Shown piece by piece: positions 1,032-27,900 of a stretch of DNA of 64,000 bases. Source of the stretch: Balanoglossus misakiensis (lineage: Eukaryota; Animalia; Hemichordata); the NCBI GenBank assembly GCA_040954595.2, contig CM082582.2, positions 5,006,303 to 5,070,302 of the forward strand. Reading direction: 5' to 3'. Position numbers and translations under genes: made by a program. Numbering within the stretch: the stretch's first letter is position 1; each line of letters begins with the position of its first letter. The notes beneath the pieces are model-generated. The model was given only the letters and a program-made list of their open reading frames with translations, made no database searches and was not told the origin of the DNA.

Positions 1032-4000
1032 AATGGAGACACACCTTTGCACTTTGCAGCAAGGTATGGCGATGAAGGCCGTGTCAATTTGTTATTGGAA
1101 CACAAAGCTGATGTAACTATACAAAACCAGGTAAAATACCAGCCAGCCTTCTACAGGTTAAATGCTTATCAACACACAATTTGTGTTTGTTTGTTTAAGA
1201 AAACCTCACATTACATTTCACTTTTTGGGACATTGTTCTCATACTCCTCCTAATTACTTACAGAATGGAGACACACCTTTGCACTTTGCGACAAGGTATG
1301 GCGATGAAGGCTGTGTCAGATTGTTCCTGGATCACAGAGCTGATGCTAACATACAAAACAAGGTATATACCAATATGACTTCTACAGCTTAATGCTTATC
1401 AACATATAAACATTTGTTTGTTTGTTTGTTTGTTTGTTTGTTTGTTTGTTTGTTTGTTTGTTTGTTTGTTTGTTTGTTTAAGGAAACCTCACATTACATT
1501 TTAATTTTTGTGACATTGTTCTCATACGCCCCCTTCATTATTTACAGAATGGAGACACACCTTTGCACTTTGCAGCAAGGTATGGCAATGAATACCGTGT
1601 CAATTTGCTATTGGAACACAAAGCTGACGTTAACGTACAAAACAAGGTAAATACAAACCTGACTTCTACAGGTTAATGCTAATCAACACATAAAAATGTG
1701 CTTGTTTTTTAAGGAAACCTCACATTACATTTTAATGTTTGTGACATTGTTCTCATACGCCTCCTTCATTATTTACAGAATGGAGACACACCTTTGAACT
1801 ATGCAGCAAGGTATGGCGATGAATGCCGTGTCAAATTGTTATTGGAAAACAAAGCTGACGTTAACGTACAAAACAAGGTAAATACAGACCTGCTTATAAA
1901 CAATTGTTTGTTTGTTTGTTTGTTTGTTTGTTTGTTTGTTTGTTTGTTTGTTTGTTTGTTTGTTTGTTTGTTTGTTTGTTTGTTTGTTTGTTTAAGGAAA
2001 CCTCACATTAGTAGTAATGACTCTTTATTTTCATTGAAATAGTTAACTTACAATTGTCACTAAAACCCCTAACTGGATGGCAGAATGTTTTGAACGTAAA
2101 TCATGAACGTTTGTGTTAATTTCTTTTTGATGATTTATTGGTTTACTTTTTGAAGCATATATAAGCGCAATATTCATGTACATTAAACCGGGAATTTTTT
2201 GCATCAGGAAATTTCATGCGATATCAAAAGAGTCAACTGTTACAAGACGATAAATTTTTGCGTTCTCGTATTTTATTAATTGCATCGTTATCTGCAAAAA
2301 AAAAAAAACATTTTACGTGACTTTTTATTTTCACGTTTTTCTTTCTCTTGTGCAGTTCGGGGAAAATGTACCGTTTGCAAAATTGTCCCTTTTACAGTAT
2401 TTCGTTTGTTATTTTTGAGTGCATTATGTTACGTAAGTTATAGTCACTGTGCATTTCGTTGTATGAGAATTTCTCACTACATTGTTTCCAGTTTTTGTGA
2501 TATTGTTCTAATGGTGCTCCTTCATTACTTACAGAATTATGGAAACACACCGTTACACTATGCAGCAGGGTCTGGTGATAAAGGCCGTGTCAATTTGTTA
2601 TTGGAACACAAAGCTGATGCTAACTTACAAAACAAGGTAACCTGACTTCTACAGGTTAATGATAATCAACATACAAACATTTGTTTGTTTGTTTGTTTTT
2701 CTGTCTGTCTGTGTGTCTGTCTGCCTGTCTGTTTGTTTGTTTGTTTGTTTGTTTGTTTGTTTGTTTGTTTGTTTGTTTGTTTGTTTGTTTGTTTAAGGAA
2801 AGCTCACATTGCATTTTAGTTTTTGTGACATTGTTCTCATACTCGTTCATTACTTACAGAATGGAGACACACCTTTGCACTCTGCAGCAGGGTCTGGCAA
2901 TGAAGGTCGTGTCAGATTGTTATTGGAACACAAAGCTGATGTAACCATACAAAACAAGGTAAATACCAAGCTGACGTCTACAGGTTAATGCTAATCATAA
3001 TACACATGTTTGTTTATTTATTTGTTTGATTATCTATTTAAGGAAACCTCACATTAAAATTTAATTTTTGTGACATTGTTCTCATTCTCCTTCATCATTA
3101 TTTACAGAGAGGAGACACACCTTTGCACTATGCAGCAGGAAGGTCTGGCGATGAAGACCGTGTCAGATTGTTATTGGAACACACAGCTGATGCCGACATA
3201 CAAAACAAGGTACTGAATACCCTAAATTCTACATGCGCAAATTTGATTGTTTGTTTGTTTGTTTGTTTGTTTAAGAAATCTATACATGGCTTTTCATTTT
3301 TTGTGACATTGTTCTCATTTTTTTCTCCTTCATCATTACTTATAGAAAGGAGATACGCCTTTACACTCTGCAGCAGAGTATGGTGATGAAGGCCGTGTCA
3401 ATTTGCTATTGGAACACAAAGCTGATGCCGACATACAAAACAAGGTAAATACAAACCTGACTTACAGGTTAATGCTAATAAACATATAAACATTTTTGTT
3501 TGTTTGTTTGTTTGTTTGTTTGTTTGTTTGTTTGTTTGTTTGTTTGTTTGTTTGTTTGTTTGTTTGTTTGTTTGTTTGTTTGTTTGTTTGTTTAATAAAA
3601 CCTCACATTACATTTCATTTTTTGTGACATTGTTCTCATTTTTCTCCTTCATCATTAATTAAAGAATGGAGACACACCTTTGCACTACGCAGCAAGGTAT
3701 GGCGATGAAGGTCGTGTCGATTTGTTATTGGAACACAAAGCTGATGCCGACATACAAAACAAGGTAAATACAAACCTGACTTCTACAGGTTAATTCTAAT
3801 CAACATACAAACATTTGTTTGTTTGTTTATTGAAACTCCACATTAATAGTAATAACGCTTTATTTACATTGAAATAGTTAACTTACAATTGTCACTAAAA
3901 CCCCTAACTGGATGGCAGAATGTTTTTAACATAAATCATGAACGTTTGTGTTAATTTCTTTTTGATGATTTATTGGTTTACTTTTCGAAGCAATTATACA

Positions 4001-7000
4001 AGATCAGTATAATTCGTTTGCAATTTTTGAGTGCATTTATCTTACGGAAACGTAAACTGTATTTTGTCGTACGAAGATTCAAGTTACTTCACTTTCACAA
4101 CCTTGCGTTTCAATTTTTGCGATATGTAGTTCTCATACTCCTCCTTCATAATTTACAGAATGGAAACACCCCTTTGCACTATGCAGCAGGGTCTGGCGAT
4201 GAAGGCCGTGTCGATTTGTTATTGGAACATAAAGCTGATGTAACCATACAAAACCAGGTAAATACAAGCTGACTTTTACTGGTTAATTCTTATCAATATA
4301 TAAATACTTGTCTGTCTGTCTGTCTGTTTATGTGTTTATTAAGAAAACCTCACATTAACATTTCAATTTTTGTGACATTGTTCTCATTGTTTTCTTTCAT
4401 AGTGTTGACACCGTTACAATATGCAGCAATGAATGGCATATTATAATGTTTGTTATAAATGGAACCCCACATTATATTTCAATTTGTGTGACATCGCTCT
4501 CATTTTCCTCCTTCATTGCTTACAGAAAGGTGACACGCCATTACACTCTGCAGCATTGTTTGGGGATGAAGGCTGTATCAGATTGTTATTGGACCATAAA
4601 GCCGATGCTAACATACAAAACAAGGTAAATGCAAACCTGACTACTACAGGTTAATCAACATATACAAATTTGATTGTTTGTTTATTTATTTATTTAAGAA
4701 ATCCTCATGTTACTTTGAATCTTCGTGACATTCTCCACCTTCATTACTTACAGAATGGAGACACCTCTCTACACACCGCAGCAAAGTACCAGTATGGTAA
4801 TGAAGCCTGTATCAGATTGTTATTAGAACACAAAGCTGTTGTAACCATACAAAACAAGGTAAATACCAAACCAACTTAATCAACATGCACACATTTGTTT
4901 GTTTAAGGAATCCTCACATTACTTCGCAATTTTTGTGGCATTGTTCTCATGCTCCTCCTTCATTACTTACAGAATGGAAACACCCCTTTGCACTATGCTG
5001 CTGGTTCTGATGATGAAGGCTGTGTCAGATTGTTATTGGAACACAATGCTGGTGCTAACATAAAAAACAAGGTAAATATCAACCTAGTTCAACAGGTTAT
5101 ACTAGCATATCTGTGTTTGTTTGTTTGTTTGTTTGTTTGTTTGTTTGTTTAAGAAATCCTCAAATTACTTTTCAATTTTTATGCCATTTTTTTCATTCTC
5201 CCCCTACATAACTTACAGATTGGAGAAACCCCTTTACACTTTGCGGCAGCAAGGTATGGCTATGAAGGTTGTATCAGATTGTTATTGGAACATAAAGCTG
5301 ATGCTAACATACATAACAAGGTACATATACCAACCTGACTTCTACAGGTTAATGCTTATCAACGTTTACACATTTGTTTGTGTTATTGTTTGTTTGTTTG
5401 TTTGTTTGTTTGTTTGTTTGTTTGTTTGTTTGTTTGTTTGTTAAAAGGAAACCTCACATTACATTTCAATTTTTGTAACATATTGTTCTCATGCTCCTCC
5501 TTCATTACTTACAGAATGGAGACACATCTTTGCACTTTGCAGCAAGGTCTAGCGATGAAGGTCGTGTCAGATTGTTATTGGAAAACAAAGCTGTTGTAAC
5601 CACACAAAACAGGGTAAATACTTCTAGGTTAATGCTAATCAACATTATAAACATTCAAACTCTGCCATTGTGATCACTGACCTCTTCACATGTCGATGTG
5701 TACATTGGTAAAAGTCCAAATGAACAGCCGAAGACCGACAAAATAGGGCCGACACGACACTTCCGCTAACACCAAACCTGACTTCTAAACATGCAAAGAA
5801 CATTACCTGAAGTCGCCAACTATTTAAACTATTTAAAGAAACCTCACAGGCTCACATTGCATTTCAATTTTTGTGGCATTGTTCTCATACTCTTCCGTCA
5901 TCATTACTTACAGAATGGAGACACGCCTTTGCACTATGCGGCAAAGTATGGCGATGAAGGCCGTGTCAATTTGCTATTGGAACACAAAGCGGATGTTAAC
6001 GTACAAAACCAGGTAAATATATCAACCAGACTTCTACAGGTTAATGCTTATCAACATATAAACATTTGTTTGTTTTATTGTTTGTTTGTTTAAGGAAACC
6101 TTACATTACATTTCAATTTTTGTGACATTGTTCTCATGTTCTTCCTTCATTATTTACAGAATGGACACACTCCTTTACATTTTGCAGCAAGGTTTGGTGA
6201 TGAAAGTCGTGTCAGATTGTTATTGGAACACAAAGCTGATGTAACCTTACAAAACAAGGTAAATATCAACCTAATTCTACAGGTCAATCATGGTAATACA
6301 TACATTGTTTGTTTGTTTGTTTGTTTATTTGTTTAAGGAAACCTCACATGCATTTCAGTTTTTGTGACTTTCCCTGATGCTCCTCCTTCATTACTTACAG
6401 AGAGGAGACACACCTTTGCACTATGCAGCAAGGTCTAGCGATGAAGGTCGTGTCAGATTGTTATTGGAACACAAAGCTGATGTTAACATACAAAATAAGG
6501 TAAATGCCAATGTGACTTCAAGAGGTTAATATATCAATATATAAACATTAATGTGTTTTATTTGTTTGCTTTTTGTGTAAGATAAAAACGGATAAAATGA
6601 ATTTGATGATGAAGTTAATAATAAGGACAGTATTGGGGATGCTGTATGGGAGAAAGATCGTGATGATGATGGTGGTGGGTGTGTCATGTGAGAGCTCAAA
6701 GTGGAAACTAAAGATCGTTAGTAATGCATTGTTTTGTTAGTTGTTTTAGTTGCATACACTGTACACATATGCTTTGGAAAATTGAATACGGATTAAAACT
6801 GTTGTGTACGGAGCCCTCATGTCCAAATCAAAGAGGTCCTGCTAATACATGTACACACAAAGTCAGCCATCAGTGACCAAACGTCTTGGGTTGTGTTAAG
6901 TATTAGCACCTGAGGCCGAGTCTATGTCAGTAACATTATTGTTGGCTTTAAAGTGTAAGTGCCTATCAAAATCTCTATCGTAGGAGCATTTTCAAATGTG

Positions 7001-10000
7001 AGACAATATCTGTCTTCCATTCAAAATTGTGCACGGTGACACCTAATTTTTATTCTCAGTTTTAATACTCAGATGATACTTGTTTGAGGCACAGTTTTGT
7101 AGACTACCACCCCAACCACCTCTATTTTTGGTACACATGTACTATGATTTAATCTGCCTTTATATCTTAGGATGGCGACACAGCTCTTCACGTGGTAGCA
7201 GTTGGCAATTCGCCTAGGGAGGACAGGGAAGTAGTGAAACTACTGTTGCAATATGGAGCAGATATTGACTGCAAAAATGGGGTCAGTCTTCTATGTTCCA
7301 ATATTTTATTCCATCACACTTTATTAGGCAGTTTCTCCACATTAATTGAATAAATTTAGTATATATACTTGTGCAATTTATCGAACTGTTTTACCAAAAC
7401 ACTTGTAAAGCAATATGGCCACCCACTGAAAATCTGTGATTAGTTGCATTAGTTTGTCATGTCTTGGCGACGCATGCCATGATAGCTGTGTACTGTTTGT
7501 ATGGAGGCTGATTAAATGGGTGCGACACCATTTAATATATAACGTTTTCAAATTGCAACATACGTCCACAATCGGGCGTCGATGAGATGTTCATGTATAC
7601 CTATCAGTAAACTTATTTCGATGTAGCAATCTAAGTTGCAAAAAAATGAAAATAATGCAAAAAGTGGCGGCTCTAGAGACTTTAATAAAGGTATCATCTC
7701 ATCAATATCAACATCGTAATTGACATCTTACTTGTTTTATCCCAATAAAACTTAGATGGGAAAGACAGCACTTGAGGTCCCTGAAAGTTACAGCTCTGTT
7801 AAGGATGTGCTATTGGATTACATTAGGGTGAGTGAGATGTTTCTTTGTCAATGTCATTAATTTTGATTATTATAACTTGAAATTTGTACCATTTCTTATG
7901 CATTTTGAATTATGGGTACGACCTAAGAATTAAATCTTTAAAATAAACATTTCTCTGTTAATTATCGAGCTAAGAATCCCTCAAAATGTATATTTTCTGA
8001 AAACTTAGATATAGGGAACATTTTTGGTTAAGTGTTAAGTACTTCAGTGTGATCATTATTCACACAACCATCATGTGACCATTTCTCTCAATGTTTTGTT
8101 TGAACGATTTGATATATTCGGCTAAAATTTGTGTGAATGCAAGCTGTCGTAACCGTCATACAAAGTGTGTCTGGGATTTTTTAAACCACTAGATCTATTT
8201 TATACGCATAAAATGTCCATTTTTATCCATTACATATAATTTAATTGTATTTTTAATTGATGATTTCTTTATTCAACAAGAAACGAGACGAGTTCAAGGA
8301 GCTGATGAAGGAAGCAGGTGTGAAATGTGACACTTTTAAGTTGTTCTTCGCTGGATACGGTGGGGTTGGTAAGACTACACTGTTGAAGTCACTTCAGAGG
8401 GTATGTTGGTATTTATTGTTTTGCGTAACAGCTCTAATAAGCTATATCTTGTACATTGTAATTGGGGTTGAGGTTGTATTTTATTTGTTGTTTTGTGCGT
8501 TTTCATTATCCATGTTCCCTAAACTTGAATATTGTAGTTACACTTTTACCGCTATTATTTTGTAAATACATGTACCAGCCATTAAACGGGGAACAAAATT
8601 CCAGCTAACTTTTACATTTCCATGCCAAAAGCTCTATAATCGTCATCTTCGTGGCCATTGTCTATCTGTGCTGTTTTGCCAAGAATTATGCTGTGTCGAT
8701 CCCAGCAATGTGAGCACATGTGAAAGAGATTCAAGTCAGGATTTACTAAGTGGATATTTGCAGAGAGATCATGGAAAATGTAAAAATAAGCTGGCATTTT
8801 GTTCCCATTTAATTAAGACTTAATTTACAAGCATATTGTGCACTATTCAATTGAATTGTGTAATTAGACAGTTTAATGGACTCTGATAACTAGAAATGCT
8901 TTTTTTCTCTCTGATAACTAGAAATGCTTTTTTTCTGTCCTTATATCAAAGACTGAAGAAAAAACCCTGGAAAGTATAGAAAGTGAACACATTCCCACAC
9001 CTGGTATTGATGTCCAAAGTGTTCATATTCCTGACGTAGGAAACGTCAGTGTTTGGGATTTTGCCGGCCAGGCTGAGTATTACGTCACTCATAACATGTT
9101 TCTGGGAGCACCCAATGCTGTCTCTATATTGGTGTTCAAAGCTACAGACGAGAATGGTAAACTCAACACCTTTAAATGTGTGATCAAGGAGGTAAGAATC
9201 TCCACAGTAAATTTTATACTTAACATGATGAGAATGTATATCCACATGTATTGCATTGTTTATGAATTCCCAACAGCAAGTTTCAAGTGTTCGAATTGAA
9301 AGTATTGCTGGAGGGAAAAACTTCTTTTCATGTGCAAAACCATCTTGATTCATGGCATTTTAATAGAGCTATATCCAGATATTCTACCATAGAGGTCTAT
9401 TAGGGAGCTGTCATTATTTATGACCTTGAGGTAGGGGTTGGAGGAATTTTACTAAAAACTAAATTATAATTGAATACCACCCCAGCCAAGCATGCCACTT
9501 GCGGAATCTGAGTACCCCACCAATCTTAAATTACACCCCCTTAACTCTGGAACAACTACATATCCAAACATGCGGTACGAGTCACGTACCACACAATCCC
9601 CCTTCTTCGTCTTTACTTCTTGAGAACCCTCCAAGCTGTAAATAATGACGGCTTTCTTAATTCTCAATCATCACCCATTTCCTGAATCATGAGAAATTGG
9701 GATTCAATTAATGATCCTTTTGCCTAAAAATTAACATTTATAATTTTATGTGTTATTTTCAATTATACAAATATTCTCATTTCTAGATTCAATTTTGGTT
9801 GCGGTTTCTGAAAGGAACAACCCACATGGACCGGTATTCATTTGGTGAGTCAAGGGAAGGATACAAAAAACCAGTGGTGATATTGGTTGCAAGTCGAGCT
9901 GATATGCTGAAGAAAGAATACATGGCTGAAGGTTGGTGTTGTCAGCTCATATGCATATGAACATCTAGCTCGTTGTGGTCAATGCTCTAACTTTGTGTGG

Positions 10001-12955
10001 GTGTGTGTGTGGACACCGTCAATGCGACTCAAAGGATTAATCCTCTATGTTCTCAAATGTCAAGTAGTATCTCTGAAACATTTCTAGTTTTACCCGGTGT
10101 GTGAACATGGTAAGTGATGCGGCGCTTATAAATATACGTTGTTTGTCCACAGACTAGGTTACATATTGCTGCTTGCAAATTGCATTATCTAGTGATTAGA
10201 ACTGCAGTTAATGCAATTAATACCATGTGATAATTTCACAGCACGCCATATGCTCAAGAACGTTCTGACAAAGGCAAAGGAGATGTTTGACGACTATTTA
10301 GACATACCGAGTAACATATTTCTGTTGAATTGCCGTGATTCTACAGACAAGGAAATGAAGAAACTCTGTGACTGTTTACATCAGAAAAAGGTAACAATGT
10401 TTTTTTGTAATCAATTGCCTCTGAATCGTTTAAATGTACAACTACAAGATTCATGAAGAATATACTGCTGAATCCATAAAAACAGAATATCCTCATCATG
10501 TTGTACAAGAATTAATTGATACAAAATTTGAATCTACAAACTTTGAATTTCTACCTTGGTAAAAGATGCATTTTCGGACTCGTTATTACTTTTATTTCAA
10601 GACACCAAGTCCATATATTAAGGTAAATCAAATAGAAAATGCTGACAAATATTCAAACATTGTATTTTCCGAGACAGGAGGGGGAAATGGAATTCATAGA
10701 ATATATAATTGTTTTCTACAAAATTGGAGTATCATTCTATACTCACAAATGATCTTCACTTTGTAGACTATTCCATTTACTGAACATATTATTTGGCTAC
10801 TTTCGATCTTTAATCATGTTATTATTTTCTTTTCATTCCTAGATAGTGAAAACGCTTCCAAGTTTTTGTGCCAAGATAATGGAAATGAAAAGTGGATTAT
10901 GTGACAAGACGTTCCCCGTTCTTTATTGGACAACATATGTGGCAAAAATCAAAGAAAAATATCCCACTATTGACGAAAGTTTCTTGCAAAAAGCCACCAA
11001 CTATCTGCATGACATTGGAGAGGTCAGTATTTAAAAAAAAAACATCTTGCATCTCGCTAATCGTTTATAACCTCTAAAAAAGTCAGAAAAAACACAAACT
11101 TAGTTCAATTATTACCAAAACTATGCCTTGTTTCATGTTTGGTGGCCATCTTGTATTTATCGAAACCCTCAATGGTGCCAAGGTGGCATCATTATGTTTT
11201 GTTAAGGACATGCTATACATGTAATTAAGTAAACTGCAAAAAATGTGCAGACTGTTATTTTGGGTTACGAGGCCTGCCACTGGACTATAATGATTTATCT
11301 AAACCACCCGGTGCCTGCCATATTTTTATGAACTGCATGCTCATTGATATATCAATGTTGGCCACTGTTCTAAATACAGTTGTTGATGAAAAGATTTACA
11401 GAGTGTGTGTTGCATAAAGTAATGTGCAACATATAGATTTTCATTTATCAAAATATTTATTTTCTTGTACATACAGCTTTTGTTTGTGAAGAAGTCATCT
11501 CCTGAAAAGGAAGATGTCGTGGTATTGGATCCAAACTGGTTGTGTTACAGGATATTTGGACCAATGTTGGCTACCCCCTTATTTGCAGAATACAGTTCCA
11601 CATTTGACAGAGATTGTTTTCAGACGATGGACAAGATAGAAGATGTACTCGGTGAAGGTGTAGACAGCAAACTCATCATCGACCTTCTAGAGGATTTTGA
11701 GCTTCTCTATGCACATAGCATCACAAAGACTGGAGAGAAACTTTTCGTCATACCAGGGCTTCAAGACGATGATATGCCTGAAGGTCATTGGGAGAAGAGC
11801 GAAGTGAAGACAATTTACATTGGCAGACGATTTGAATGCCGTGATCAAACGGATTCCTTTACGGCAGGCTTTTTCCCAAGATTACAGACCCGTCTATATA
11901 AGCATTTCACAGAGCTTGGCCAGCCGCCCAGTGGCTTATGGAAAAATGGTATCAAAGTGTGCCATGATGTTGAAGGTCTTGTCTTTATGACTAATGACAG
12001 AAGGGCAGTCAACGTCTGCGTACGAGTTAAAAACAAGAAGTCGATGGGTGAGGGCTACGAGCTTCTTGAGATGGTTTCCAAAGACATACATGATGTCTTC
12101 TCGGTCGCATGTCCAGGCAACAGGATTAATCAGCTTATTCTTAGTGCTGATTCTCTTGCAAACCACAGTGATATAGAAAACTTCGAATTTTACACCCTCG
12201 ATGAGGTGCTTCGTGCAGAAGACATGGGGACGAAAGTGTACAACAAAGAAGTCGGTGAAGCAGAAGATGTTTGTGACCTGCTTTGTCAAGGTCATGACAC
12301 AACAATCTTACAACACCAGTGGAAACGCTGTGATATCAAATGGATGCTTGAAGAAACAAAAAGAAAACTGACCATGAGAATGGACATTCAACGTGCACAA
12401 TCTTTGCACTACGCCTGCATGGCAGAATGGATGGGAATCGGGTACCAGGATGTCAGGGCATTTGAGGAGATGGCGGGTCGAACAGGCATACCAGTTACAG
12501 AATACATCTTTGCAGAGTGGTGTCGTAGATGGGTAGGGACAAGGCGACATCAACGGGGAAAAGACACAGAACTCCCAGCCACTTCTCATGTCACACATGA
12601 TGTTGATAGTGGTTTTGCAACAATGTCACCGTCATCTAAACAACCAGACCCAGGGGTACAATTCCGACGAGAAAACGACACCACTACAGCTGCAGACATC
12701 ACAGCCGTCTCATATGACATAGAAACCTCCGAAGATCATTGTGAGAAAATGTCACACTCGTCAACATCACCTCAACAAGAATCAAGTGAAGAAGTGAAGG
12801 CTCAGAAACCAGCAAGACAGAAGTATCCACATGTACAGGGACCTGTCTTGGAAAGCAACTTTGAGAATCTGTTGGCAATATTCAGCACCATGGGAAGAGA
12901 CGACATGGTCGGATTGATTGAAGAGATGTTCCAGAAATTGGAAGAACGCAGATAG
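1032..12955 (+). CDS. ROCO protein: tandem ankyrin repeats + ROC GTPase + COR + death domain (DAPK-like C-terminus); multi-exon, 5' end not identified
   Basis: 18 ankyrin exons (1032-6499), then 7171-7281 (DGDTALHVVA..GADID), 7756-7827, 8281-8400 (P-loop GYGGVGKTT), 8952-9191 (PTPGID, WDFAGQ.EYY.TH), 9787-9931 (VILVASRAD), 10242-10390, 10843-11022 (YLHDIGE) and 11477-12955 (COR: VVLDPNWLC..IFG, GFFPRLQ, LWKNG; then death domain). All GT-AG with consistent phases; about 1430 aa visible. Confidence 0.9.
2179..2399. mobile_element. Non-autonomous DNA element (TACTGTAAAA...TTTTACAGTA family), degenerate left end
   Basis: Shares GCGATATCAAAAG core and TTTTACAGTA end with copies at 35286-35457 and 58316-58505; absent from the paralogous intron at ~3990-4040. 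Confidence 0.6.
4403..4440 (+). pseudogene. Truncated ankyrin pseudo-exon
   Basis: After a typical array intron and TTCATAG it reads aca ccg tta caa tat gca gca atg aat ggc (TPLQYAAMNG). It then joins the 3' half of the next intron, with no exon 3' half or donor. Confidence 0.7.
9403..9656. mobile_element. Degenerate PIF/Harbinger-like MITE in ROCO intron
   Basis: TTA|GGGAGCTGTCATTATTTA ... TAAATAATGACGGCTTTC|TTA: imperfect terminal inverted repeats with TTA flanks. Confidence 0.5.
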
Positions 12956-14564: not shown

Positions 14565-17500
14565 TCAAATCAAATAATTAACGTTGGGGGCGTCCCGCTC
14601 ACAGTCTTCGTGATCACACACGCAACTTTGTGGAATGGAAGTTGTCTTAGTCAAGCGAACAGCTGATTCGTTGCCTGTGGAAACACAATTACAAGAACAC
14701 AAATGAGTTTTATACTCGTCACAACTTTTTTGCACAACACCAGAAGAAACCATCCCCATGCACACTTTTCATAAATGCAGCGCCCTCATGAAGCAATCAA
14801 AGTGAGGCTTAAGTTGACTAATGAATGTCGGAATTTGACCTCAAATTCACGATGACTACATGAGGGCGCTAGACCTATAAAAGGGGAACGCAAACGAATT
14901 GAAGATTATCACAAAGGATTGTATTTTTAGCTTGTGTTTTTCCTCGAGCAACTGTCGGAATAAAAAAAAAACAATTGAACTTTTCACATTGTAGTGAATA
15001 GTGAATGATTATTATCTACTAAGAAGATTTCATCTATGACGTTTTCCTTTGTAGAATTTGATCCTATGTATTTTTTATCTTATTTCTGTGCACATTCAAT
15101 ATTCTTAGTCGTATATCACTCTACGTCAAGGAAATATCCCGCCTGCCAATCTGATTAAAATCAGATGTAGGGAACGGCGACGTCTTTTACTTACGCTGTA
15201 CGGTATTTCTTATGTTGTACAGTACCGCGCAAGTAAAATACGACGTCGCCGTTCCCTACATCTGATTTTAATCTGATTGCCCGCCTACCTGCTTCCTGCG
15301 AGCCTTCCGTGGGAGTGCACTTGAACTCAACGTCAACAGTTCGAAAACTTGAGGACTTGCAGAGTTTGGGGCAGGTCAGATGTTTTTGTACACTTTGGCA
15401 GTTCATTCCGTCGTGGACCTTTGTCAGGTATTCCACATTTCCTTTGCAACCTACGAAGTAACAAATGACTTTCATTTTCATTCATCAATATTTCTAAATC
15501 CACAATCGCTAACTCGTAGCCGTTTTCAGTAAATTGTGTTGTGTAGTAGTTCGGATACCCGGCCAAAGCACAATGAAATACCCTGTATTTAGCTTTCCAA
15601 ACACATTTTTGTATGCACAGTCATTATTGTTATTGTGGGTACACAAGTCCGGATAAGCATTCATAATACAACTATGATAGTCGTTTACACATAAACGACT
15701 TTTTATTCGCATCACTAGTGAAATTCTGAAAACGGAGTTTGGCATGCCATGTAGATACATTTTGTACCTATGATAATTTAAAACAGCAGAAGTAACACAG
15801 AATTTTCCATGATGGGCCTATAGTCATACATGAACATAATATCACGAATTGTAATGAGGACGAACTGTCATGGCATCGTCGCAAACCACGGCCCTTTTAC
15901 GGCAGCGCTCTGCTCCCCGCAATTTCGATAGTGAAGCGAAAGAAATCCGTAGTCTGGTGGTCGAGAATGTGTCATGGGCGATTAGTCTTGTCCCATGCCC
16001 CATTCCCACCGCTGGCTGCGCTGCTCAAAGCATACGAGGACAGTTCGGCAACTCGATCACTCACTAATACTACTTGGCAATAGCCAATAACGTTTTAACG
16101 GGGTAGAAAGAAACCACACGTTTATCACACTTGCCAGCCGGTTGTAATTTGCTACGTGCAAAAATATAGAATTGATCAAGAACTTTCATGCACTTACTGC
16201 AGCTTTGGCATTCCTTAGTCTCCACGACACGGCAAATCTGGTCGTCGGATTGGTCGCACCAAGCTCGGAGTGTCCGTTCTTGTTTTCCCCGACCGCACTG
16301 AGTGTCGGCACGACAAGCGCTCCATTCTGACGCAGAGACGGCCACACATTCTGTTGGCGAAAACGATGACGTCATCATGATGAAACAAACGTAAATTTTA
16401 CCACTAACAGAACGAAAACAATTTATTTCCCAATTACCGAAAAACAAAAATTTCAGGAAATTTCATTGAAATAAAGTTAAAATAGCAGTTAATTATGAAG
16501 ATGTTTAGTTTTACTTAGTAATCATTAATGACTGCATTTAGTAAAATATTGTAGCTATTAAACATCAGCGAAAGGTCACTGCATGTATACAGGACAGACA
16601 GTAAACGAGTGAGTTACTTGGTTCATGATTTTTACCAAGACCAAAGGAAGCGCAAAATGACTAGTAGGCTAGTCTACCATTCAACGAGAAATGTTAATAA
16701 AGACTCTGACGTGCACGGGGTTGCCTGAGCTGCCACGCTTAAATCTTACCGCTGTTACTGCCCTCATTAACTATTGGTTTCTCATCATCAGTCTCCCTTG
16801 CACCTCGAACACTCTCGTTTGTTGGTCTGTGAAAAGGACGCCGATATATGTTCTATTTATACTATACAATACTTTATGCAAAGTAATAAGAAATAAGGCA
16901 ATCAGTGTTGTCAACGTTACTTTAAACACATAGGGGTGCCAATAATATACCCGACATTTCATGCTTTATGAAGTTGATGAAAACGCAGTTGGAAATTTTT
17001 AAACAATCGTCTAACGGAGCTTGAACTGCATAGTCGCCCGTCAAAGTCTTTCTCTACGAGACTGTGGTCGAGCCAACGACCCGTGCGAGCGGATAGTTGC
17101 ATCATATCATCGATTTCGTCGCAGAAGTTCGAAGTTGGCGATGCATTTCAAAATCAGCAATCATTACTGTGCATTGCAAGTGTACTCGTGTGCGGGTATG
17201 TGTTTGAGTAAATCTTACCCTTTGGGCGTGGCTCTCAGCTGATAGGTGATGTTCAACCCACTGGTGCCGTTTACTTGCCTACACACTCCATCGAAGTCTG
17301 CATAGCCGGTGACGTCAACGCACGACTGGAAAGAAACAGACTCTCAGTATAATACAAACATGGATCTGCGTGCATTAATGTGTAGCACGTATTACATTGG
17401 CGTCACCACTGGTCGAGCTAATACCCAGACAGCGAGATCTTTTGACGGCACATTGAGTTGTATTGTTTGCGACAATTAGAGGTGATATTTTTCAAAAAAT

Positions 17501-19537
17501 CTGAATACATGTTAATTTGTCGCCGTGTATATTTTCAAATTTAGAGTAAGACAAGCGCCTGACACTACTCCACTCTGATGTGTGATACATTTGACATTTT
17601 GTGCTTGACTATCATGGAAATTGTATGTGAGTATGTTGACTCACACTTTGATGGAGGTTTTGGAAACCAATATTCTTGGCCATTTCATCTTCTCCTTCTC
17701 CGTTCCTGCGTTTAAGAAATGAACTAAAGTTGAATCTGAAAATAGAAAAATTAAACATTTTGTTAGTATCGGTGTTAAATTTGGACACATTTATTGGCTT
17801 TCCCGTTAAATTGATTGATTGATTGGCAGACTGACTGATTATTCAGTTAAATCAATCATCCCTCCCTCCTCCCCCTCCCCACTCCGTCCATTCCCCCGTC
17901 TGTCTGTCTGTCTGTCTGTCCGTCCGTCTCTGTCTGCCTGCCTGTCTGTCTGTCTGTCCGTCCGTCTCCCCGTCTGTCTGTCTACGCTCTGGTGACTGAC
18001 TTGGCACCCATGCGTGTATCATGCAAACTTCCCTCGATGACAAATTGCGGAAAAGTAGAAGGATTGTCGGGGTATTTTGCATCTACCAACCTTTTGCTGT
18101 AAACACTCGCTTCATTCAAACTAGTCTGCATATCAAATTTCACCGGATCATACCACACAGATGCGTTCACGGAGAGGTGAGGGAAACCATTGGACGCGTT
18201 GAACTTCAGTCCAGATGATATAAAATGGCCATCTACGCCGATCTTTCCATCGACGAAAGCCCAAAAGCTAGGACAAGATTGATAATGTCATTTAGGGGTG
18301 TAGCCTTTTCAGTATACAAAACGGTGTTACAGTGTTCGCGATCGAAAAATTTTGGTATACACTACTGGTGGTGCTGGTGGTGGCGGTGGTTGCAGAGTTG
18401 GACAATTTTGCTTTATGGTTATGCTATATAAGCAGATGATATAAATATCAGATATAATATATTGATGCTTGACTCTTTCCTTCATAGGAGATGCGAGAGG
18501 GTACATTTCACTCACATTCTTGTGAGACTTCTTACAACTAAATTATTCCAAAATGCAACCGACCAAAGCCGCACTCTTCTTTTCATTGTGTCTGACGACA
18601 GAACTGACCTTGAGTTCAGCTGCGCGACCAGCTGTGACTCTTCAACCTTCAAGTCGCCATCCGCACTGATCATGAACCTGGAGCCCTTGTCCACTCGCGC
18701 CGTGAGCGGGAGACCGAGACTGGTGGGCATCCGGAACGAGGAGTAGTACATCTGGGTTGTCTCGTTGTAGGCCACCGATTGGCCGGCCTGGAGCCCGCGC
18801 AACAGGTGGGCCACCTCGTCGACGGCCTTGTGGGAGAAATACACCTCCTGGCCGAGAATGACCACATAAAAGGACAGCTTGGGTTTGATAACCTCCTGGC
18901 GGCAGATGGAGTCAGATGGGACCTACAAGTAACGACATTTTACATTGTTGAGCAGTGACGCATGTTAAGGGGGCAGGGTCGGGTTCGTTTGATACGAAAT
19001 GTTTTGGCGCGAAAGTACTCTAGCCAATCCAGCCAAATCAATTTTGAGCCTAATGGTGACCATCTTCACTCACGTGAGTAAACTTTGACAAGACAAAGTA
19101 TAAGAAGCGAAAAATTAATGTAATCGAGTCGACGTGCAAGTATGCCACTGGTTGAGCTTTGATTATATGCAGAAAATAGGTTTTAACTTGCCTCTGGTGT
19201 ACACATCAAACCATTCATACCACTGGCGTCCACGTTCGTTACCTCGGCACGCCTGGCGAAAATTCCTTGCCTTCGAAACATACTCAATAAGTAATAGTCG
19301 AAACCCCTGCATGGACGCAAGGACCCGCGTTTGCGGTGGTTCTCGATTCCCTGTTTCAGTGCGCGTAGTTGAGGACCGAGTCCCTCCACACGAAGTCCCA
19401 TCTGTAGTTTGGGAGAATTATTATGGTTAGCAGTGTCGTGTTCAATAGCCCCCAACGGTGAAACTTCACCCAGCCAATTGCAGTGCACCCCAAAGAGGTG
19501 GCGGTTGGTGCGAAATATCTAAAATAAACTAATCATC

Positions 19538-19578
<41 letters not shown>

Positions 19579-20655
19579 GACAACAATAATAATTTTTTTT
19601 CGATCCAGATCACCTCGAACAGATGTGTATCAAATCCCATGACGTCATTCATATCCATGAAGTTCAACTTGATTTCACGCGGCAGGTGGCTGCTCGCGTC
19701 ATAGATCACGTGACTGCCCAGGACACCTGCAACAACGAGTTGGTTAAAAGGTGGTTAGTGTAGAGCTGATGCGAACAACGGTGGCGACAGGGCTTTTAGA
19801 ATGTGAAAAAAAAAATTTCACAAATGAACTCTTGGAAACAACAATTAGAACAGAAAAGTAACCCCAATGTCTTTCTGTGTGACATCTACAATGTAAAGGG
19901 TCCGACGACACTGTTCGTTGCGCAGATTGTGCAATTCATGTCAACGGCAGTTGCGCTAACGACTTAAGTGAAAGTGCAACACGGTTACCTTCTTTTCCCA
20001 AGGACCACGACGACGCAAACGAAGTATTGAACTTGTTTGCTTGCGTTGCAACTGGACACTCGTTTCCGAGGCGACGAAGGACTTCCTCGTAAGTTTGAAT
20101 CCTTACAAGTTGAAGGAATAAAAAAAAAAAACTTTTTGAGTTCAAATAATGAAGTCAGGTCACGTCATTTTGAATTTGCGTCAATATGCAACAATTTACC
20201 CAGTTGCTAAGCGCACCATCGAAACAAATAATGTCGTCTTTACCTACTTTCCTGGCCGGGAAAAAGTGAGTAAGTTTTCATGGACGTGTCCAAATATGAA
20301 CAGATGTAGTTAATCATATCTATATCCTCTTCTGCTTCTAATGTGGGGGTTATCCTGTTCACAATTCCCATGGATGGTTTCAGTTCCATTAGCATGATAA
20401 ACGCTGCTATCCGTATTTCGATTGCATTGGTCCTGTTCTCAAATAACACACTCAGCTGGTTCAAGACCTGCATATTGAGAGGCAAGCGTGTAACGTTAGA
20501 GGTAGAGACATAGAACAAGAGAGACAGACAGGCAGAGAGACAGAGAGAGACAGACAGACAGAGAGACAGACAGACAGACAGAGATACACAGACAGACAGA
20601 GAGACAGACAGACAGAGAGACAGAGAGACACAGAGAGAGAGACAGAGAGAGAGAC

Positions 20656-20718
<63 letters not shown>

Positions 20719-22238
20719 AAACAGACAGATCTCGACAAACGGACAGACAGACAGAATCAAAATGCAACGACAACAGGTAAATCAATTGTTGGGAGACAAC
20801 ATGCGAAAGATGAAAATGAAACCCGAAACTTACTAAACGGAGAGCAGTTACCAATTTCGAAGTATATATTAAAGGACTTAATATCGAATATTACCCATAA
20901 TGCCACGTGCACTGAATGATTTCTCGGTGTGTCGAATGTCATCACTGAGAATCCCTCAGTCGAAGAATGATGGAAACTTTACAAGGAAAGTGGGGGAGAA
21001 CCTTTATTGGCTTTAGAATTACCTTCGTGGTGATTTTGTCAGCAGGCACTTTCCATGGACTGAATATGGCCGTGGCTCTTGTCTCGAGTGTTGGACAGTC
21101 TTTTGCACACTGCATCATGAGAGGCAGGGTGGAAGACAAACCCGTGTTCATCAAACCCTTTATTGCCATCAAGATCTCTTCTTCGTTGTTTTCCTTCAAG
21201 GACTTTGTGAAGAAAGACACTAAGAAATTCTTGGCTTCTTCTATGGTATCCTGAACAGAAGGTGTATAACGTATAGAAAAAAAATCTATCAGCAAATCTT
21301 GCATGTAGCATAGTGTTGTTTATATCGGTTAATAATACATGTACTCCTCTTTTGGCACCGTTTGTGAAAATTTCAAGAATATGACAATATTGTAACGTTA
21401 TTTTCTCAACATCGCTATGGAATGCGATTACCACACACTGCATCCGGGTATTCACCTACCCGAAGCTTCCACACTGTTACTTACCGGCATAGCGTTTTCG
21501 TCGACTTCGTAGTTGGTGACGAAGTTGTAGATCATTGAACCCAGAGTGAGTAAACACTGATCTCGCAGTGATGGCTTGGTGCGAGCGATCGTCTGTCGAT
21601 GACACCAGAAAGGGACACAGTGTGGAGATGGTAGAAGAAGAATATTCAATAACTCGGATTATTGAAAGTATCGTTTGAATTTCTTGGTGAAGACAGCAGT
21701 TATGATCCTTGGGGAAATACACCTGTTTGCTTCTAGCATATCTGTTTGTCATTGTTCCTGTGATACCGGCAGTATTTTCTGTGAATAGTTTGTGTATGTC
21801 TGAATAATGGATAATGGTTTGGTATATTTTTAGGTATCGGCATTAAATATAGAAAATAGCTACAGCTTCTGGAGTGTCGAACTGGTATGCAACATCCTTA
21901 ATCACAATGTTTACAATTAATATTACGGGTTTTACCCACCAAGACATCGTTCACCATTTCACTTGTGGGATTTGTAGCGATCGCAATACCACGAAGGTAA
22001 CGCCTGGCTTGGCTGTCGTCGACCATACTTGAGACGATTTGATCGGCCATCAGTTTGACCGCTACGGATGTGTCTAGGCTTGACAAGACCTCACTGAATG
22101 TGTCCCTGTACATAGAACCAGCATATCAATCGGTGAATCGCGTGAAAAGAACAGCACAAGACGAATATTAACGGCGCCAGTGTCACTACCACCATCACCA
22201 CCACCACCACCACCACCACCACCACCACCACCACCACC

Positions 22239-22316
<78 letters not shown>

Positions 22317-24930
22317 TCACCACTACCACTACCAGAACCGTCATCATTATAATAACAATCTACTACTATGAGAATGAAAAACGTTCCGTTTCATGAATTC
22401 ATTAGAATTGAATACTAGTATTCACCTCGATGCCTTGTCAGCTGTTGAGTATTTCTCATAAATATGCAGAAGTGTGCTGACGTTTGACTTGCGAAGTGTC
22501 GTCACCAGGTTCATGAACAAAGCTGGCTCCTTGATGTTCGGATAACGGCCATGTTTGATTTCCCAGATGTACTCTGTCATCAGCTTGTCAAACTATTCGG
22601 CGAAGATAAGAACACAACGTTTGTTTCCAACATACGAAGATGCAAAATGAGAGATGCTGCTCATTTACATAACAATCAAACCCTCAAACATTTATGTATG
22701 CTGTCTCGACACAAACCACTATAGCCAGCTTTTTTTGCTGATGTGCCCAGTTTTGACTAGATAGACGCTTTTAAACAAGCAAGTTTCCACTGCCAAACAC
22801 GATTCACACATTCTCAACAGTCACTATGTATTTTACCTTTGGGAAAGATATTTGCTCGGGGTCGACATCTGTCTGAGGTTTTACTTCAGCTGCGAGTTCC
22901 GCAGTTAGAGTACGTGAAGGCCAGTCTGGTTTTTCTGAAATCAAGAAACATTCACGTTATCAATGTTATCTATTATTTCCTCAGTTCATAAAAAATACGT
23001 ATGTGTTTAGTCAATAGTCGCAAACTTCCACAAATGCAATCAATCCGTCAATGGTTAGCCGATTACGGGACTATTGGAATTTGCTTGCAAATAATTCAGG
23101 ACTGTCTTAAACGTTTCCCCAAATTTGGCTCAAGGCAATTTTATGCTATTTTACTTAAATTTGCGAATAACAATTGGATTCAAATTGTGTCAAATTTGAA
23201 ATTTAAAACGTCCACCAATCTTTGCGTGGTAACCTCTAAGTAGTGGTTTGTATGCAAACTACACAGGAAACATTTTGCGTTGTTTTCAAAAAGACTACCC
23301 ACACTTATGCAGAGATTTGAAAGGGTTTGGAGGACTGTCATTTTATACTGAAGATCTTTCCGCGAGGGGCATACTACCTTTAAAGCGTCACCATATTAGA
23401 TTAATTACCTGCTAACGATGAAGAAGTGGGAACAGCGGTCACCAGTTTCAGAGTTTGTCTAAACACAGGCGAAACAAGACAGAATTACAGATAAATCTCT
23501 CAGGACTCCAAATATAAGAAAAGATAGCAAAGCATTATTTTTGTTACTTATAAAATATGGCTAAAAAGAACATGTGGCTATCATACTCTACCATGTTGTG
23601 TACAGCTAATGCGAAGGTCATCATGTTAGCGTAAATGCGTGAACAGTTTATTTCCACAGAGATGCAATATAGCAAATACAGTACACCCTCTATGTGCACA
23701 GATGTACCTGTATACCTTGCATTGATGGCGAGTGCCCTGTTGGCGAAAAGACCTGACAATGATCTGTTACCTGTTCAAATCAAATGAAGATTAATTTACC
23801 TCACAGTCGTGTTGGACGTCATGACAAGGCGGCTGTCCCGATCAATTTCGTGATCAAAGAGATAATACTCTTCTAACTCGACGTCTTTTATAGCCTTGTT
23901 GCTGTAAATGCCACTTTCCGATTCCAACAATGCCATGGTGATGACAGTTCTGCTGGCCGATGTAAATTTTTCTGGCTGAGAACACAGACAAGAGCAAAGT
24001 ATAATTTTATGTTGCGTGAGTGGAATACGTTTAAATGTACACAAATCAAATCATGCAAAACCGCTAGTTTTCCATCTGTGACAGTGAATAAAGCTGTCGT
24101 GAAATCAAATTGTTCCCGTAAAGGGCAACGATCGTCTTATGCGCATGTGCAATACCAGAGACTCTGGTTAAAAAAAAAACTGTATACAGTCAATGCCATA
24201 AGGCAGTGTGCCGATGTCCCAACAACAGCGCTGACCATAGTCGAACGCACAATCTGCACAACATTTGGATTTAACGTAATGTTTATACACGTGATATACG
24301 CACATGTGCATAAGACGATCACCGGCCTTTAAAGCGCGTAGCTCATCTCACGCGTATGCGCGTAACTTCCCAGCAAATTTTCCGTTCGATGCATTCAAAT
24401 AGTGGACTGCCTTCGCTTCCTTCCATATTTCATGCGCACCGTATAAGTAGATTCTGGTTTTGTCCCTCCTTTTCACCCAATTTGCTGTCTTTACATACCC
24501 GATCTCCGACACAGATTATGGTCACCGCCATCTTCTCTGTTGTTAGGACAGAGCACTGCCTTATGGGATTGACTGTTCACTAAACGTCTGTAACCAGCGG
24601 CTACAGCTGGAACATGCGTGTGAGACGAGCTACGCGCTTTAAAAACAACAAAAAGGACAACAACACAACGCGTACCATAGCTAGGCAACTTCTCCCAGGC
24701 AGAGTACAGTTCACCACAGAAGTGTATTTTGTGCACTGTTTCGGGTCTTTGGTTTTAGTCAGTGTGACTTGGAATAAGTCATCGTCGTTCAGTTTCGCTG
24801 TGTAATTCACCATACAATCGCCAGTAACGTCACCCTGAAATACACAGAAATGTATGGGCGAATTAATAGACACATGCTTGTATATATGTACATGTATATA
24901 TAAAATGTATACTGGCAATATCCTATATAT

Positions 24931-24997
<67 letters not shown>

Positions 24998-27900
24998 TTT
25001 TCTGTGGTGTAGTTAAAAAATATATCAATATAAAAATTTCTGTAAATTATGATATAATGAAATTATTTTCTGTACTGATTACTTGTTAGTTAATCACAAC
25101 AAAATCGATGTTTGTGAGTTCGTGGATGCGTTTTACATATTTCCTGTTTATATGTACAAACGAGCGAGTTCACAGACAAAAAACTGAGGAATGTCGACAG
25201 AAAAATTCACCAAAAAGTGATAAATATTAGCAGAGCATGGTTTCGATCCATGGACCTCTGGGTTATGGGCCCAGCACGCTTCCGCTGCGCCACTCTGCTA
25301 CGATACGGGCGATCAGGTAATGAGCGACTTCACCGACAAAAACTGAGGAATGTCGACAGAAAAATTCACAAAAAATGAGAAAATATTAGCAGAGCATGGT
25401 TTCGATCCATGGACCTCTGGGTTATGGGCCCAGCACGCTTCCGCTGCGCCACTCTGCTACGGCTGGGAGCAGCGGTACAGTTGAATTTCAGTGCACAGTA
25501 AAAGATATGATGCAATCGCAGATTTGTTGCGTTCTCATAATACCAGTATTGATTTAGCGCCTAATTATATCTCTGTCAGTATGAGAAAGCAATCGGATTT
25601 TTGGCAACACGTACTGATTTGCATACATACATACATACATACATACATACATACATACATACATACATACATACATACATACATACATACATACATACAT
25701 ACATACATACATACATAAATCAAAATACTTGCCTCAGATACTTTGTATTCGTAAATATTTGGTTTTGAGTCTGTTAATTGCTTTTCGTAGTTTTCCTGGT
25801 AATGAACTTGGAGGGCGCTGATAACACCTCTTTTGACGTTTGTCACCCACTTCGGCTCGTCTGGGGGCGACTTCAGACTGGTCACATGACCATTGAGGTC
25901 GCTGAACTCGACATGATGTTTCTCCAAAGCAGTTTTCATCTCGCTAAGACTTGTGGATAACGTGAAGTCTTCGTCCATCGGAGACTTTTCTTCGACTTCA
26001 ACATTTTTCATCTGCAGGAAAAGAATGATATACATGTACGTGCATATTTGTGTGTCCGTCCAGCGCAACTTGAAAACAATAAAGCCAGTGTTCGCATCAC
26101 ATATCCCTATGGTGAGTTAATGCATTCTGGACCTCAAAATATGTAAATGGTCAAAACTCAAAAACTCGCGACCTATTGGTCATATTGATTGAAAATTGAT
26201 TTTCATGTACTCAAGACAGAGTTATTTAGATCATGTGCCGGTGTCAGGAATTGTCTCTATTTTCATTAATTATTTGTCCTTTGCTTCATTTTGTTTTTAA
26301 AAAAAACCACCCGATGAAATCATTTTTGCCACTTTTAATTGTGATTTCGTCGCAAAATTGCAAGTTTGTTGTGGTGATGTGTTTTGTTTTATGAGAAATA
26401 TATTTTGCGTGATTGTATTTTCCCATATACATGTATTCAAGTTTCGCGTGTTTATGCGTGGAAACTTGCTATCCTCCCTATAAATAGTAAAATGTGTTCC
26501 ACAATCCCTGTCTCACCTCGAGTTGTCGCTTCTCATATGGTAGTATTGTCAAGATGACGTCACACTTTATCCGAAATCCAGACTTTTCCACAGAGGACGT
26601 CTGCGCATGCGGGCTTAGTTTGAGCCATGTCGTTGTCTCAGTTTCGCCTACGTAGTTGTAAGTGATGCGCTTGTTAGATTCTGGCGCTGAAAGAAAAAAT
26701 ACAGTGTTAGGTTTGGGTCGGTTGGGGTATAATCTTTGCATGCACACAGTGTCAGCCTGCCTGGAGGATCGGCCAGTCATTGATTTGGTGATGTTAACGG
26801 GACAAAGTCTCTCTCTCGCTGACCTTTTTGCCATTAATTATATTTGAGCCACTGTTTATGTTATTCTACATGTGAATACATGTACATTGTATGTGTTGAA
26901 TCAACGTTAGACCACACACAACTTCAATCGTGTTTGTAGGATATGTGAGTAAAAATCTCGCCAAAATGAATAAATGGTAAAGACTGATTATTCATTTACG
27001 CGAGTTTTTCACTCTCGTGTCTACAAGTGGGATGGAAGTTGTGTGTGGTTGAACATTGATTCACTATATATCCACATGTAGAATAACTTATATCAAACAT
27101 AATTAATGGAAAAGAGGCAGCGAGAGAGAGACTTTGTCCCTTTAATCTGCTTTCGCAATATGAAATGTTTACACCCACTTTGGTTCATATGGGCAGGTGA
27201 ACGAACCCGTATTGATAACATTGATTCCCTTTATAGCAGGTCAGTCTTTGTATGCAAATCACAAAGGCTGGTCGTACGACACCAAGAATCAATAGCAGTG
27301 CTGCCCGTTATTGTAAAATTTGACCACTGCAGGAAAAATAATAAAAATAAATGCATTGTTTTGGGAGGGTTCTGGATTGAATAAGAAAAATAAATTAATT
27401 AGACGCTGCACATATATTGAACAAATGATTAAATTAAATACCAAGCTTACATTTGCAACTCATTTATTGAATAACTGACAGTAGAAGGTTACATGGCATT
27501 GATTTAGGAAAGTATTATTCGCGAATGACCTTGTCATTAACTGAACTTATTTTATCTGAACTGAACTAGAGCTAGGTTACTTAGAACGGTGTCAATAAAG
27601 AATATGCAGATAAACTAGAACTTGTTCAGTCTTTTTGTATGGAAAAATCACATCATTCGGAAAATAAGTTTTGGTAGACTTGCCTATGGTGTTTATATTT
27701 GTTGACTAAAAAGGTTCATGTACTTTGATCTGATATCTCTGTGTAAATCAATCAAAGCTGTCTTTGCCTGTCAATCGATTACCCACTAGTCATGCGACCA
27801 GACAAGGCCATGGTCAAATTCAGCCCAAAATTTACTGTCTTTATAATAATCACATTCCAAGGCTATATACATGTAATATGTTTTATCAGAGTTTACCAGT

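Follow-up and report, generated by a model that had tools for sequence, protein, structure and literature searches.

A one-repeat-per-exon ankyrin array in a probable Ank-Roc-COR-Death gene of a likely ptychoderid acorn worm

Vertebrate DAPK1 comprises the domain order Ank-Roc-COR-Death; in humans, ROCO proteins including DAPK1 serve in roles other than sensing. DARPin libraries are built from self-compatible 33-residue ankyrin modules with a fixed core, in which the binding positions are those that we take to be numbered 2, 3, 5, 13, 14 and 33. In the LRR-ROCO genes of brown algae, each repeat has its own exon (Zambounis 2012, PMC3341825; Teng 2024, PMC11378527). Fungal NLRs with highly internally conserved ANK repeats combine a homogenised ankyrin sensor array with a NACHT or NB-ARC nucleotide switch, and selection as well as repeat-number polymorphism were shown for them (Dyrka 2014, PMC4986451). 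By analogy, the gene described here may best be understood as an ankyrin-based equivalent of those brown-algal genes. A literature search, with most subscription journals outside its coverage, yielded no report of a ROCO gene in an animal with one ankyrin repeat per exon.

The window, i.e. the whole stretch of 64,000 nucleotides that was analysed, contains 18 near-identical mini-exons at 1032..6499 on the forward strand, counted inside the window on a single haplotype. Exons 1 to 6 are located at 1032-1130, 1264-1362, 1548-1646, 1779-1877, 2535-2636 and 2860-2958, exons 7 to 12 at 3108-3209, 3346-3444, 3665-3763, 4159-4257, 4526-4624 and 4754-4858, and exons 13 to 18 at 4973-5071, 5219-5320, 5515-5613, 5914-6012, 6160-6258 and 6401-6499. 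AG/GT borders and phase 0 were found for all 18, each symmetric exon encoding one repeat. While 14 of them comprise 99 nt, exons 5, 7 and 14 comprise 102 nt and exon 12 comprises 105 nt; the introns range from 114 to 657 nt, and the duplicated unit is an intron plus an exon. Pfam Ank matched exon 1 with E=6.7e-10, identifying the repeats as ankyrin and not LRR, and searches of PDB sequences returned generic ankyrin proteins only. The exons showed a mean p-distance of 0.167 (minimum 0.07) and the repeats a mean amino-acid identity of 71%. An assembly artefact as the source of the array was ruled out, since even the closest exon pair is 7% apart. Positions 1-1031 showed neither a start exon nor an N-cap, and the 5' end of the gene probably lies outside the window.

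Together with the exons downstream on the same strand, the array gives a spliced frame of 1,430 open residues with no internal stop and with the G1-G4 motifs kept. A divergent last ankyrin repeat at 7171..7281 (phase 0, Pfam Ank E=8e-9) carries a four-residue insertion after helix 1 and is followed by a phase 0 exon at 7756..7827, which may serve as a C-cap-like or linker exon. Roc is encoded by exons at 8281..8400 (P-loop, G1; tblastn to relatives), 8952..9191 (G2 and G3; Pfam Roc E=6.5e-7, above the cut-off), 9787..9931 (G4-like motif, phase 0-1) and 10242..10390 (phase 1-0). COR follows directly, starting with COR-A at 10843..11022, which was assigned because tblastn places it on COR-A in relatives and which has no Pfam match on its own. 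The last exon (11477..12955, 492 aa, stop at 12953-12955) comprises the remaining COR, with a Pfam COR-B match of E=1.7e-8, and from about 12317 the death domain. This ROCO gene context was absent from the first-pass annotation of the locus.

The predicted structure of the C-terminus is a six-helix death fold. It matched 3mop_K with a Z of 11.3 and an rmsd of 1.8 over 93 residues, and all of the top 15 fold matches were death domains. In the model, about 100 low-confidence residues interrupt the domain between helices 4 and 5. When aligned with the relative P0037, the C-terminus also falls within the Pfam Death region of that protein. Pfam Death matched neither the gene's own C-terminus nor any of 10 close relatives scanned (0/10), and Foldseek with the C-terminal model gave nothing at E<=0.001, the best match being the MyD88 death domain (E=1.2). 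The gene thus shares its domain order with vertebrate DAPK1, but has many more repeats, and no kinase domain was found in the window, beyond which the 5' end probably lies, or by Pfam in 19 relatives.

The closest relatives are hemichordate Ank-Roc-COR proteins with 40-50% identity. The 'DAPK1-like' hemichordate proteins XP_070549583, XP_070550841, XP_070546714, XP_077996865 and XP_006815029 share the domain order, the Roc motifs, COR and the C-terminal helical domain, with 40-50% identity in the last exon. Repeats of XP_070546714 are very similar to the window array. Unlike the window gene, with 71% identity among its repeats, these proteins have repeats that are 54-60% alike, and the insertion of about 100 residues in the death domain sets the window gene apart. 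Annotated relatives carry 15-18 repeats within one protein. All nine more distant relatives scanned, picked by length among the top 47 matches, contained CARD, Death, caspase or GT4-conflict domains. A scan of metagenome contigs gave 48 pattern matches and no relatives. A neighbouring gene showed identities of 78% to Ptychodera flava, 67% to Glandiceps and 53% to Saccoglossus, and the host is, judged from sequence, likely a ptychoderid acorn worm.

As in the brown-algal LRR-ROCO genes, the N-terminal repeats each occupy one symmetric exon of a ROCO gene, the concave face varies, a dead exon copy lies in an intron and recombination has occurred inside the array. The single remnant, a dead 19th unit at 4339..4440 (+), kept the upstream intron element and the codons for approximately positions 6-15, but lacks the acceptor, the exon start with the first codons, the 3' two thirds and the donor. 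A PHI-type recombination test on the exons gave p=0.0003-0.003. Exons 7 and 18 are 2% apart in the 5' half, while their nearest neighbours differ in the 3' half. The units are mosaic, and the pattern is consistent with gene conversion. A triplet test, in which 66 of 4892 triplets reached p<0.001 against an expectation of 4.9, suffers from flanks that are not homologous and from triplets that are not independent, so that the recombination claim rests on the exon-only test; a test of conflict between exon and intron trees was set aside as biased, each tree being fitted to its own data. Intron 4 carries an insertion at 1979..2173 (+) in common with intron 9 (about 3814-4010; 197 nt, 91%), which points to the duplication of a block of several units; part of the insertion is also present at 35313-35375 and 58410-58495. 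Tracts of (TTTG)n with 4-96 nt occur in the array introns at the unit boundary (1413..6334, +). Unequal crossing-over of phase 0 intron-exon units would lengthen or shorten such an array, and gene conversion would reshuffle it.

Contrary to the brown-algal genes, the repeats are ankyrin instead of LRR, the phase is 0 instead of 2, the host is an animal, a death domain is present at the C-terminus, no inverted exon copies were found in the window and positive selection is borderline. With the fungal arrays (PMC4986451) the locus has in common that a homogenised ankyrin array of sensor type adjoins a nucleotide switch and that the inner helix and the beta-hairpin vary, whereas the switch is a ROCO GTPase, each repeat has its own exon, the 85% identity that defines the fungal repeats is not reached (mean 71%) and a single haplotype was read.

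The first-pass annotation had described 18 exons free of stops and frameshifts, and neither was found in any of them (0/18); in neutral simulations, all 18 exons stayed stop-free in only 0.05-0.15% of 2000 runs per setting. It had also placed four in-frame insertions at the beta-turn or the end of helix 1, which agrees with the lengths of 102, 102, 102 and 105 nt: the +3 insertion of exon 5 sits at the beta-turn and those of exons 7, 12 and 14 at the helix-1 end, all four adjoining the binding face. Its further statement that all indels keep the frame holds for the surviving 18 exons but not for the decayed 19th copy. Indel lengths were multiples of three in 4/4 cases in exons versus 8/38 in flanking intron alignments, end artefacts included. 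The proposed purifying selection on the scaffold was borne out by an omega of 0.19 for the repeat core, with a synonymous rate equal to the intron rate; core changes comprise P7S in two exons and H9N in one.

The variable residues listed previously are as described in the alignment, and their concentration at the DARPin positions was found in part. Mean entropy at positions 2, 3, 5, 13, 14 and 33 was 1.20 bits compared to 0.71 bits over all 33 (permutation p=0.011; p=0.0015 with position 10 added). However, the six highest entropies belong, in this order, to positions 13, 10, 21, 18, 31 and 32, four of which are non-DARPin positions, while position 33 (Q in 16/18) and position 2 (K in 14/18, encoded directly before the donor) hardly vary. 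Diversity is therefore neither restricted to the DARPin set nor high throughout it. Since entropy at these positions was also raised about twofold in 5/5 related arrays, the enrichment is at least partly generic ankyrin behaviour.

These data bear on the alternative that survives best, namely that a neutral surface around a conserved core reflects the usual constraint on ankyrin repeats, here in an array that expanded recently, and involves no positive selection. We regard this alternative as quite possible, if tentatively so. Besides the related arrays and the equally variable non-binding positions 21, 18, 31 and 32, it accords with the codon models, which were run with the author's own code on 33 codons and a poorly resolved tree. 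For the a priori DARPin set they gave an omega of 1.0-1.24 (range 0.85-1.75), and 1.15-1.45 with position 10. Among 246 runs of a simulated null with neutral surface, conserved core and gene conversion, 8.5% reached the observed binding-face omega and 32% the entropy observed there. The diversifying selection on the binding face proposed earlier is thus not significant (omega 1.0-1.45 not significantly above 1, p of about 0.085), and a selection for diversity there is borderline. M2a versus M1a was not significant on any of three resolved trees (p=0.21-0.74), nor was a class defined by relatives (10, 13, 14, 16, 19, 33; omega 1.33); M8 versus M8a gave p=0.017-0.15 on resolved trees, and the top four of P0004 an omega of 1.83 with a nominal, uncalibrated 2dL of 5.7. 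Site tests on star trees (p=0.001-0.013) were rejected as inflated, because shared changes are counted many times.

Three observations speak against a purely neutral surface. While the beta-turn positions 2, 3, 5 and 33 showed an omega of 0.95, the helix-1 positions 10, 13 and 14 carry the best, though weak, signal with 2.24, for which simulation gave p=0.012 when the set is taken as fixed and p=0.049 when its post hoc choice is allowed for. Positions 10 and 14 are restricted to a Tyr/Phe/Ser alphabet; among neutral TAT sites with at least three residues, 1.2% acquire F and S without H/C/N/D, a combination that was seen at both positions, although purifying selection against H/C/N/D would have the same result. 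Finally, all four insertions adjoin the binding face. On the other hand, the raised frequency of amino-acid variants was even clearer at non-binding surface positions (p=0.004) than at the binding face (p=0.033). CpG hypermutation accounts for position 19 (CGT/TGT), but not for 10, 13 and 14.

It is unlikely, in our estimation, that exons are skipped or chosen in subsets, giving one gene many binding surfaces as reported for the brown-algal genes. The 18 exons and the following two all share phase 0, which keeps the reading frame whichever of them are joined, units with 71% protein identity should stack interchangeably, and exon 9 has an atypical AAG acceptor; as a precedent, Ectocarpus ROCOs are reported to have splice variants with differing LRR content (PMC11378527). 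Against this stand uniform splice sites (all donors GTA, acceptors (C/T)TTACAG in 16/18), candidate branch sites separated from the upstream donor by over 80 nt, which argues against steric exclusion, and two annotated isoform pairs of relatives that differ outside the array. With regard to mutually exclusive arrays of the Dscam type, a crude exact-match test showed no excess of docking-type complement in three unique flanks within the window (p=0.18-0.55); all introns comprise at least 114 nt. A splice-and-recombine library of 18 interchangeable exons, with a Tyr/Phe/Ser code at 10 and 14 and many intracellular binding surfaces that feed into a GTPase switch and a death domain, is similarly doubtful; if true, it would be an animal, ankyrin-based counterpart of the brown-algal exon-shuffling receptors.

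Very improbable is a natural DARPin library in the strong sense, with all binding-face positions driven to diversify. The entropy enrichment (p=0.0015-0.011), the star-tree site tests and M8 versus M8a would favour it, but simulations with an omega of 3 or 5 never gave estimates as low as observed (0/151 and 0/125 runs), and strong diversifying selection (omega >=3) on the binding face is excluded; an omega of 2 gave them in 9.7% of 165 runs. The array has 3.7 residues per site compared to 5.6 at an omega of 2, star trees overcount shared changes, and, in contrast to DARPin libraries, this natural array has positions 2 and 33 nearly fixed and varies at position 10 and on the back face. The library reading is largely refuted for the window array, and the term used in the first-pass annotation was overstated. 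Least probable of all is a decaying or selfish expansion, enlarged by microsatellite-assisted slippage and now heading to a pseudogene, for which the TTTG tracts, the dead copy and the core changes P7S and H9N could be cited, but which conflicts with 18 stop-free exons (p of about 0.001), the core omega and the intact downstream frame.

Altogether, we consider it somewhat probable that the 18 exons form the 5' part of an intact gene for an Ank-Roc-COR-Death protein, likely an intracellular sensor, for which PMC3341825, PMC11378527, PMC4986451 and PMC8195603 provide precedents. In such a protein, ligand binding would fall to the ankyrin array, switching to the Roc-COR GTPase and the recruitment of partners to the death domain. 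Splicing probably joins most of the exons into a single long solenoid, like that of annotated relatives. Its surface positions would drift approximately neutrally, and any diversifying selection on 10, 13 and 14 would be mild at most (omega of about 2). A conserved scaffold with a varying surface likely suits an immune-type sensor.

The earlier headline of diversifying selection is weak, and binding-face variability is common to ankyrin arrays. Most of what is understood of ROCO function concerns LRRK2 and DAPK1. If the proposed reading is true, hemichordates would possess an expanded Ank-Roc-COR-Death family with cassette-built, recombining sensor arrays, and the idea of ROCO proteins as NLR-like receptors, put forward for brown algae and bacteria, would then also cover a deuterostome.

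All 18 array exons (1032..6499, plus strand) were found intact at the location reported by the first-pass annotation, with AG and GT borders, phase 0 and no stop codon (0/18). While 14 of them comprise 99 nt, three comprise 102 nt and one 105 nt. The duplicated unit takes in the intron; the introns share an element of 70 nt and contain TTTG tracts 4-96 nt long. Under neutral simulation, all 18 exons stayed stop-free in 0.05-0.15% of 2000 runs. The claim that all indels keep the frame holds for the exonic ones, since 4/4 are multiples of three (introns: 8/38), but it covers surviving copies only: a dead 19th copy lies at about 4339-4440, and the spotless frame record is therefore a record of survivors. 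A dead copy among the repeat exons is a feature shared with the exon-cassette ROCO genes of brown algae. Synonymous changes appear denser in the first 13 exon codons (18/31) than in the last 20.

Variation had been described as concentrated at the positions randomised in DARPins, which we take to be 2, 3, 5, 13, 14 and 33. The mean entropy of these six was 1.20 bits compared to 0.71 overall (p=0.011), and addition of position 10 strengthened the enrichment (p=0.0015). However, the ranking by falling entropy (13, 10, 21, 18, 31, 32, 14, 3, 5) places several other positions high, whereas positions 33 and 2, the latter being the last codon ahead of the splice donor, are almost invariant. The seven positions showed about twice the entropy of the others in 5/5 related arrays (distinct proteins with at least five regular units, two isoform duplicates left out). 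Thus, the enrichment is real, but partial and typical of ankyrin arrays. In a Glandiceps relative two ankyrin types alternate, and its positions 10 and 5 vary strongly. The available parts of PMC8229355, PMC8683736 and PMC4132713 place the randomised DARPin positions on the concave face and confirm nothing further.

Synonymous sites and introns evolve at equal rates (scale 1.07 vs 1.04; 1.29 vs 1.32), which validates the selection baseline. The proposed purifying selection on the scaffold was confirmed by an omega of 0.19 for the repeat core. For the binding face, where diversifying selection had been proposed, the six positions chosen a priori gave an omega of 0.95-1.02 (GY model) and 1.24 (MG, range 0.85-1.75), the seven positions 1.15-1.20 and 1.45 (1.0-2.1), the five sites named by the annotation 1.5-1.76, the beta-turn sites 0.95 and positions 10/13/14 2.24, all from purpose-written codon models on only 33 codons. 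The same limits are stated for exon-wise selection tests in the accessible part of PMC3341825. On resolved trees, M2a vs M1a was not significant (3/3), while M8 vs M8a yielded p=0.017-0.15.

Since the units recombine, the estimates were calibrated with 246 simulation runs combining a neutral surface, a conserved core and gene conversion. The resulting p was 0.085 for the seven positions, 0.065 for the post hoc top five, and 0.012 for positions 10/13/14 as a fixed set or 0.049 if picked post hoc. The power is good: a true omega of 3 or 5 led to an estimate of at most 1.45 in 0/151 and 0/125 runs, and an omega of 2 in 9.7% of 165. Strong diversification across the whole binding face is therefore excluded, and the weak signal at 10/13/14 is what stands of the claim; for mild selection on helix 1 the chances are roughly balanced. 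Positions 10 and 14 both toggle between Tyr, Phe and Ser, and His, Cys, Asn and Asp are absent there although mutation would yield them as well; such a restriction, noticed post hoc, occurred in 1.2% of simulated neutral sites with at least three residues, and purifying selection against these four residues would explain it equally well. A raised variant frequency at non-binding surface positions (p=0.004 vs 0.033 on the binding face) counts against face specificity.

With eight more exons (7171-12955) the open frame reaches 1,430 residues, free of internal stops and with the G1-G4 motifs kept. Pfam matched Ank, Roc and COR-B, and by Roc and COR the predicted product is a ROCO protein. The C-terminus had no Pfam match and weak Foldseek matches; its model (pLDDT 76.6) aligned to death domains with Z 11.3 and rmsd 1.8 over 93 residues, the best 15 rows all being death domains (15/15). 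In the model of this domain (12317-12952), about 100 low-confidence Ser/Thr/Glu-rich residues are predicted to be inserted between helices 4 and 5; the relatives' inserts lie at the same place, are shorter and vary in length. A perfect 28-nt tandem duplication (8881-8936) lies directly upstream of a Roc exon acceptor. A search of 1-1031 for a start exon or N-cap yielded nothing save a possible four-codon exon at 588-599, and the 64-kb window showed no second ROCO gene.

The matches that were named are all hemichordate proteins (3/3 in one search, the 10 best in another), nearly all labelled DAPK1-like. The cluster of the closest Ptychodera flava relative counts five members (90% identity), which lie on scaffolds of 0.4-2.9 Mb and represent either a recent expansion or uncollapsed haplotypes. 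A Pfam scan of 19 relatives detected CARD, Death, caspase or GT4-conflict in 9/9 more distant and 0/10 close ones; among the distant Ank-Roc-COR relatives, these C-terminal effectors (the last a glycosyltransferase) appear interchangeable. One gene near the ROCO gene matched Ptychodera flava best (78%). The window also holds a vitellogenin/lipid-transfer family gene (about 16000-27000, minus; Pfam Vitellogenin_N and open beta-sheet) and, as ordinary neighbours, exons of AIG2-like (29808-30218, minus), CDT1 (40455-44000, plus) and DIPK1C/FAM69 (48758-49723, minus), besides a perfect 123-nt tandem duplication (31863-32109), a perfect 20-nt palindrome (701-720) and, by eye, a long MITE-like inverted repeat (about 15150-15280).

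Within exons, close sites are more compatible than far ones (p=0.0003-0.003; whole unit p=0.003-0.04). The 5' halves of exons 7 and 18 differ by 2%, while their 3' halves have other exons as partners. A 197-nt insertion (91% identical) is common to introns 4 and 9, and units 3/4 and 8/9 are recent neighbours. These observations fit an array shaped by unequal crossing-over, block duplication and gene conversion. Additional mixing of the exons by splicing is permitted by their frames, but seems improbable, as the splice sites are uniform and canonical, a docking complement was not found in three flanks, annotated relatives carry 15-18 repeats per single chain, and two isoform pairs of relatives differ outside the array. 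Assembly copies are ruled out by the pairwise exon divergence of 7-25% (mean 16.7%).

Altogether, the array is a real feature and the first interpretation is partly supported. By its defining test the array does not behave as a natural DARPin-like library, and the boldest reading, a deuterostome library of ankyrin receptors built by splicing and recombination, is doubtful. As far as the available parts of the sources describe them, the gene probably works like brown-algal LRR-ROCO genes (PMC3341825, PMC11378527), with ankyrins instead of LRRs. It is also similar to the ankyrin arrays of fungal NLRs (PMC4986451), but does not reach the 85% identity that marks this class in fungi. The literature searched, supplements aside, yielded no description of an animal ROCO gene with one ankyrin repeat per exon. 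Beyond the observed gene anatomy and constraint, the product probably acts as a sensor in which the ankyrin solenoid would bind a ligand, Roc-COR would then switch and the death domain would recruit partners; an analogous scheme is proposed for repeat-AP-GTPase-effector systems in the accessible part of PMC8195603. The phase-0 cassettes would allow array length and order to change while the frame is kept.
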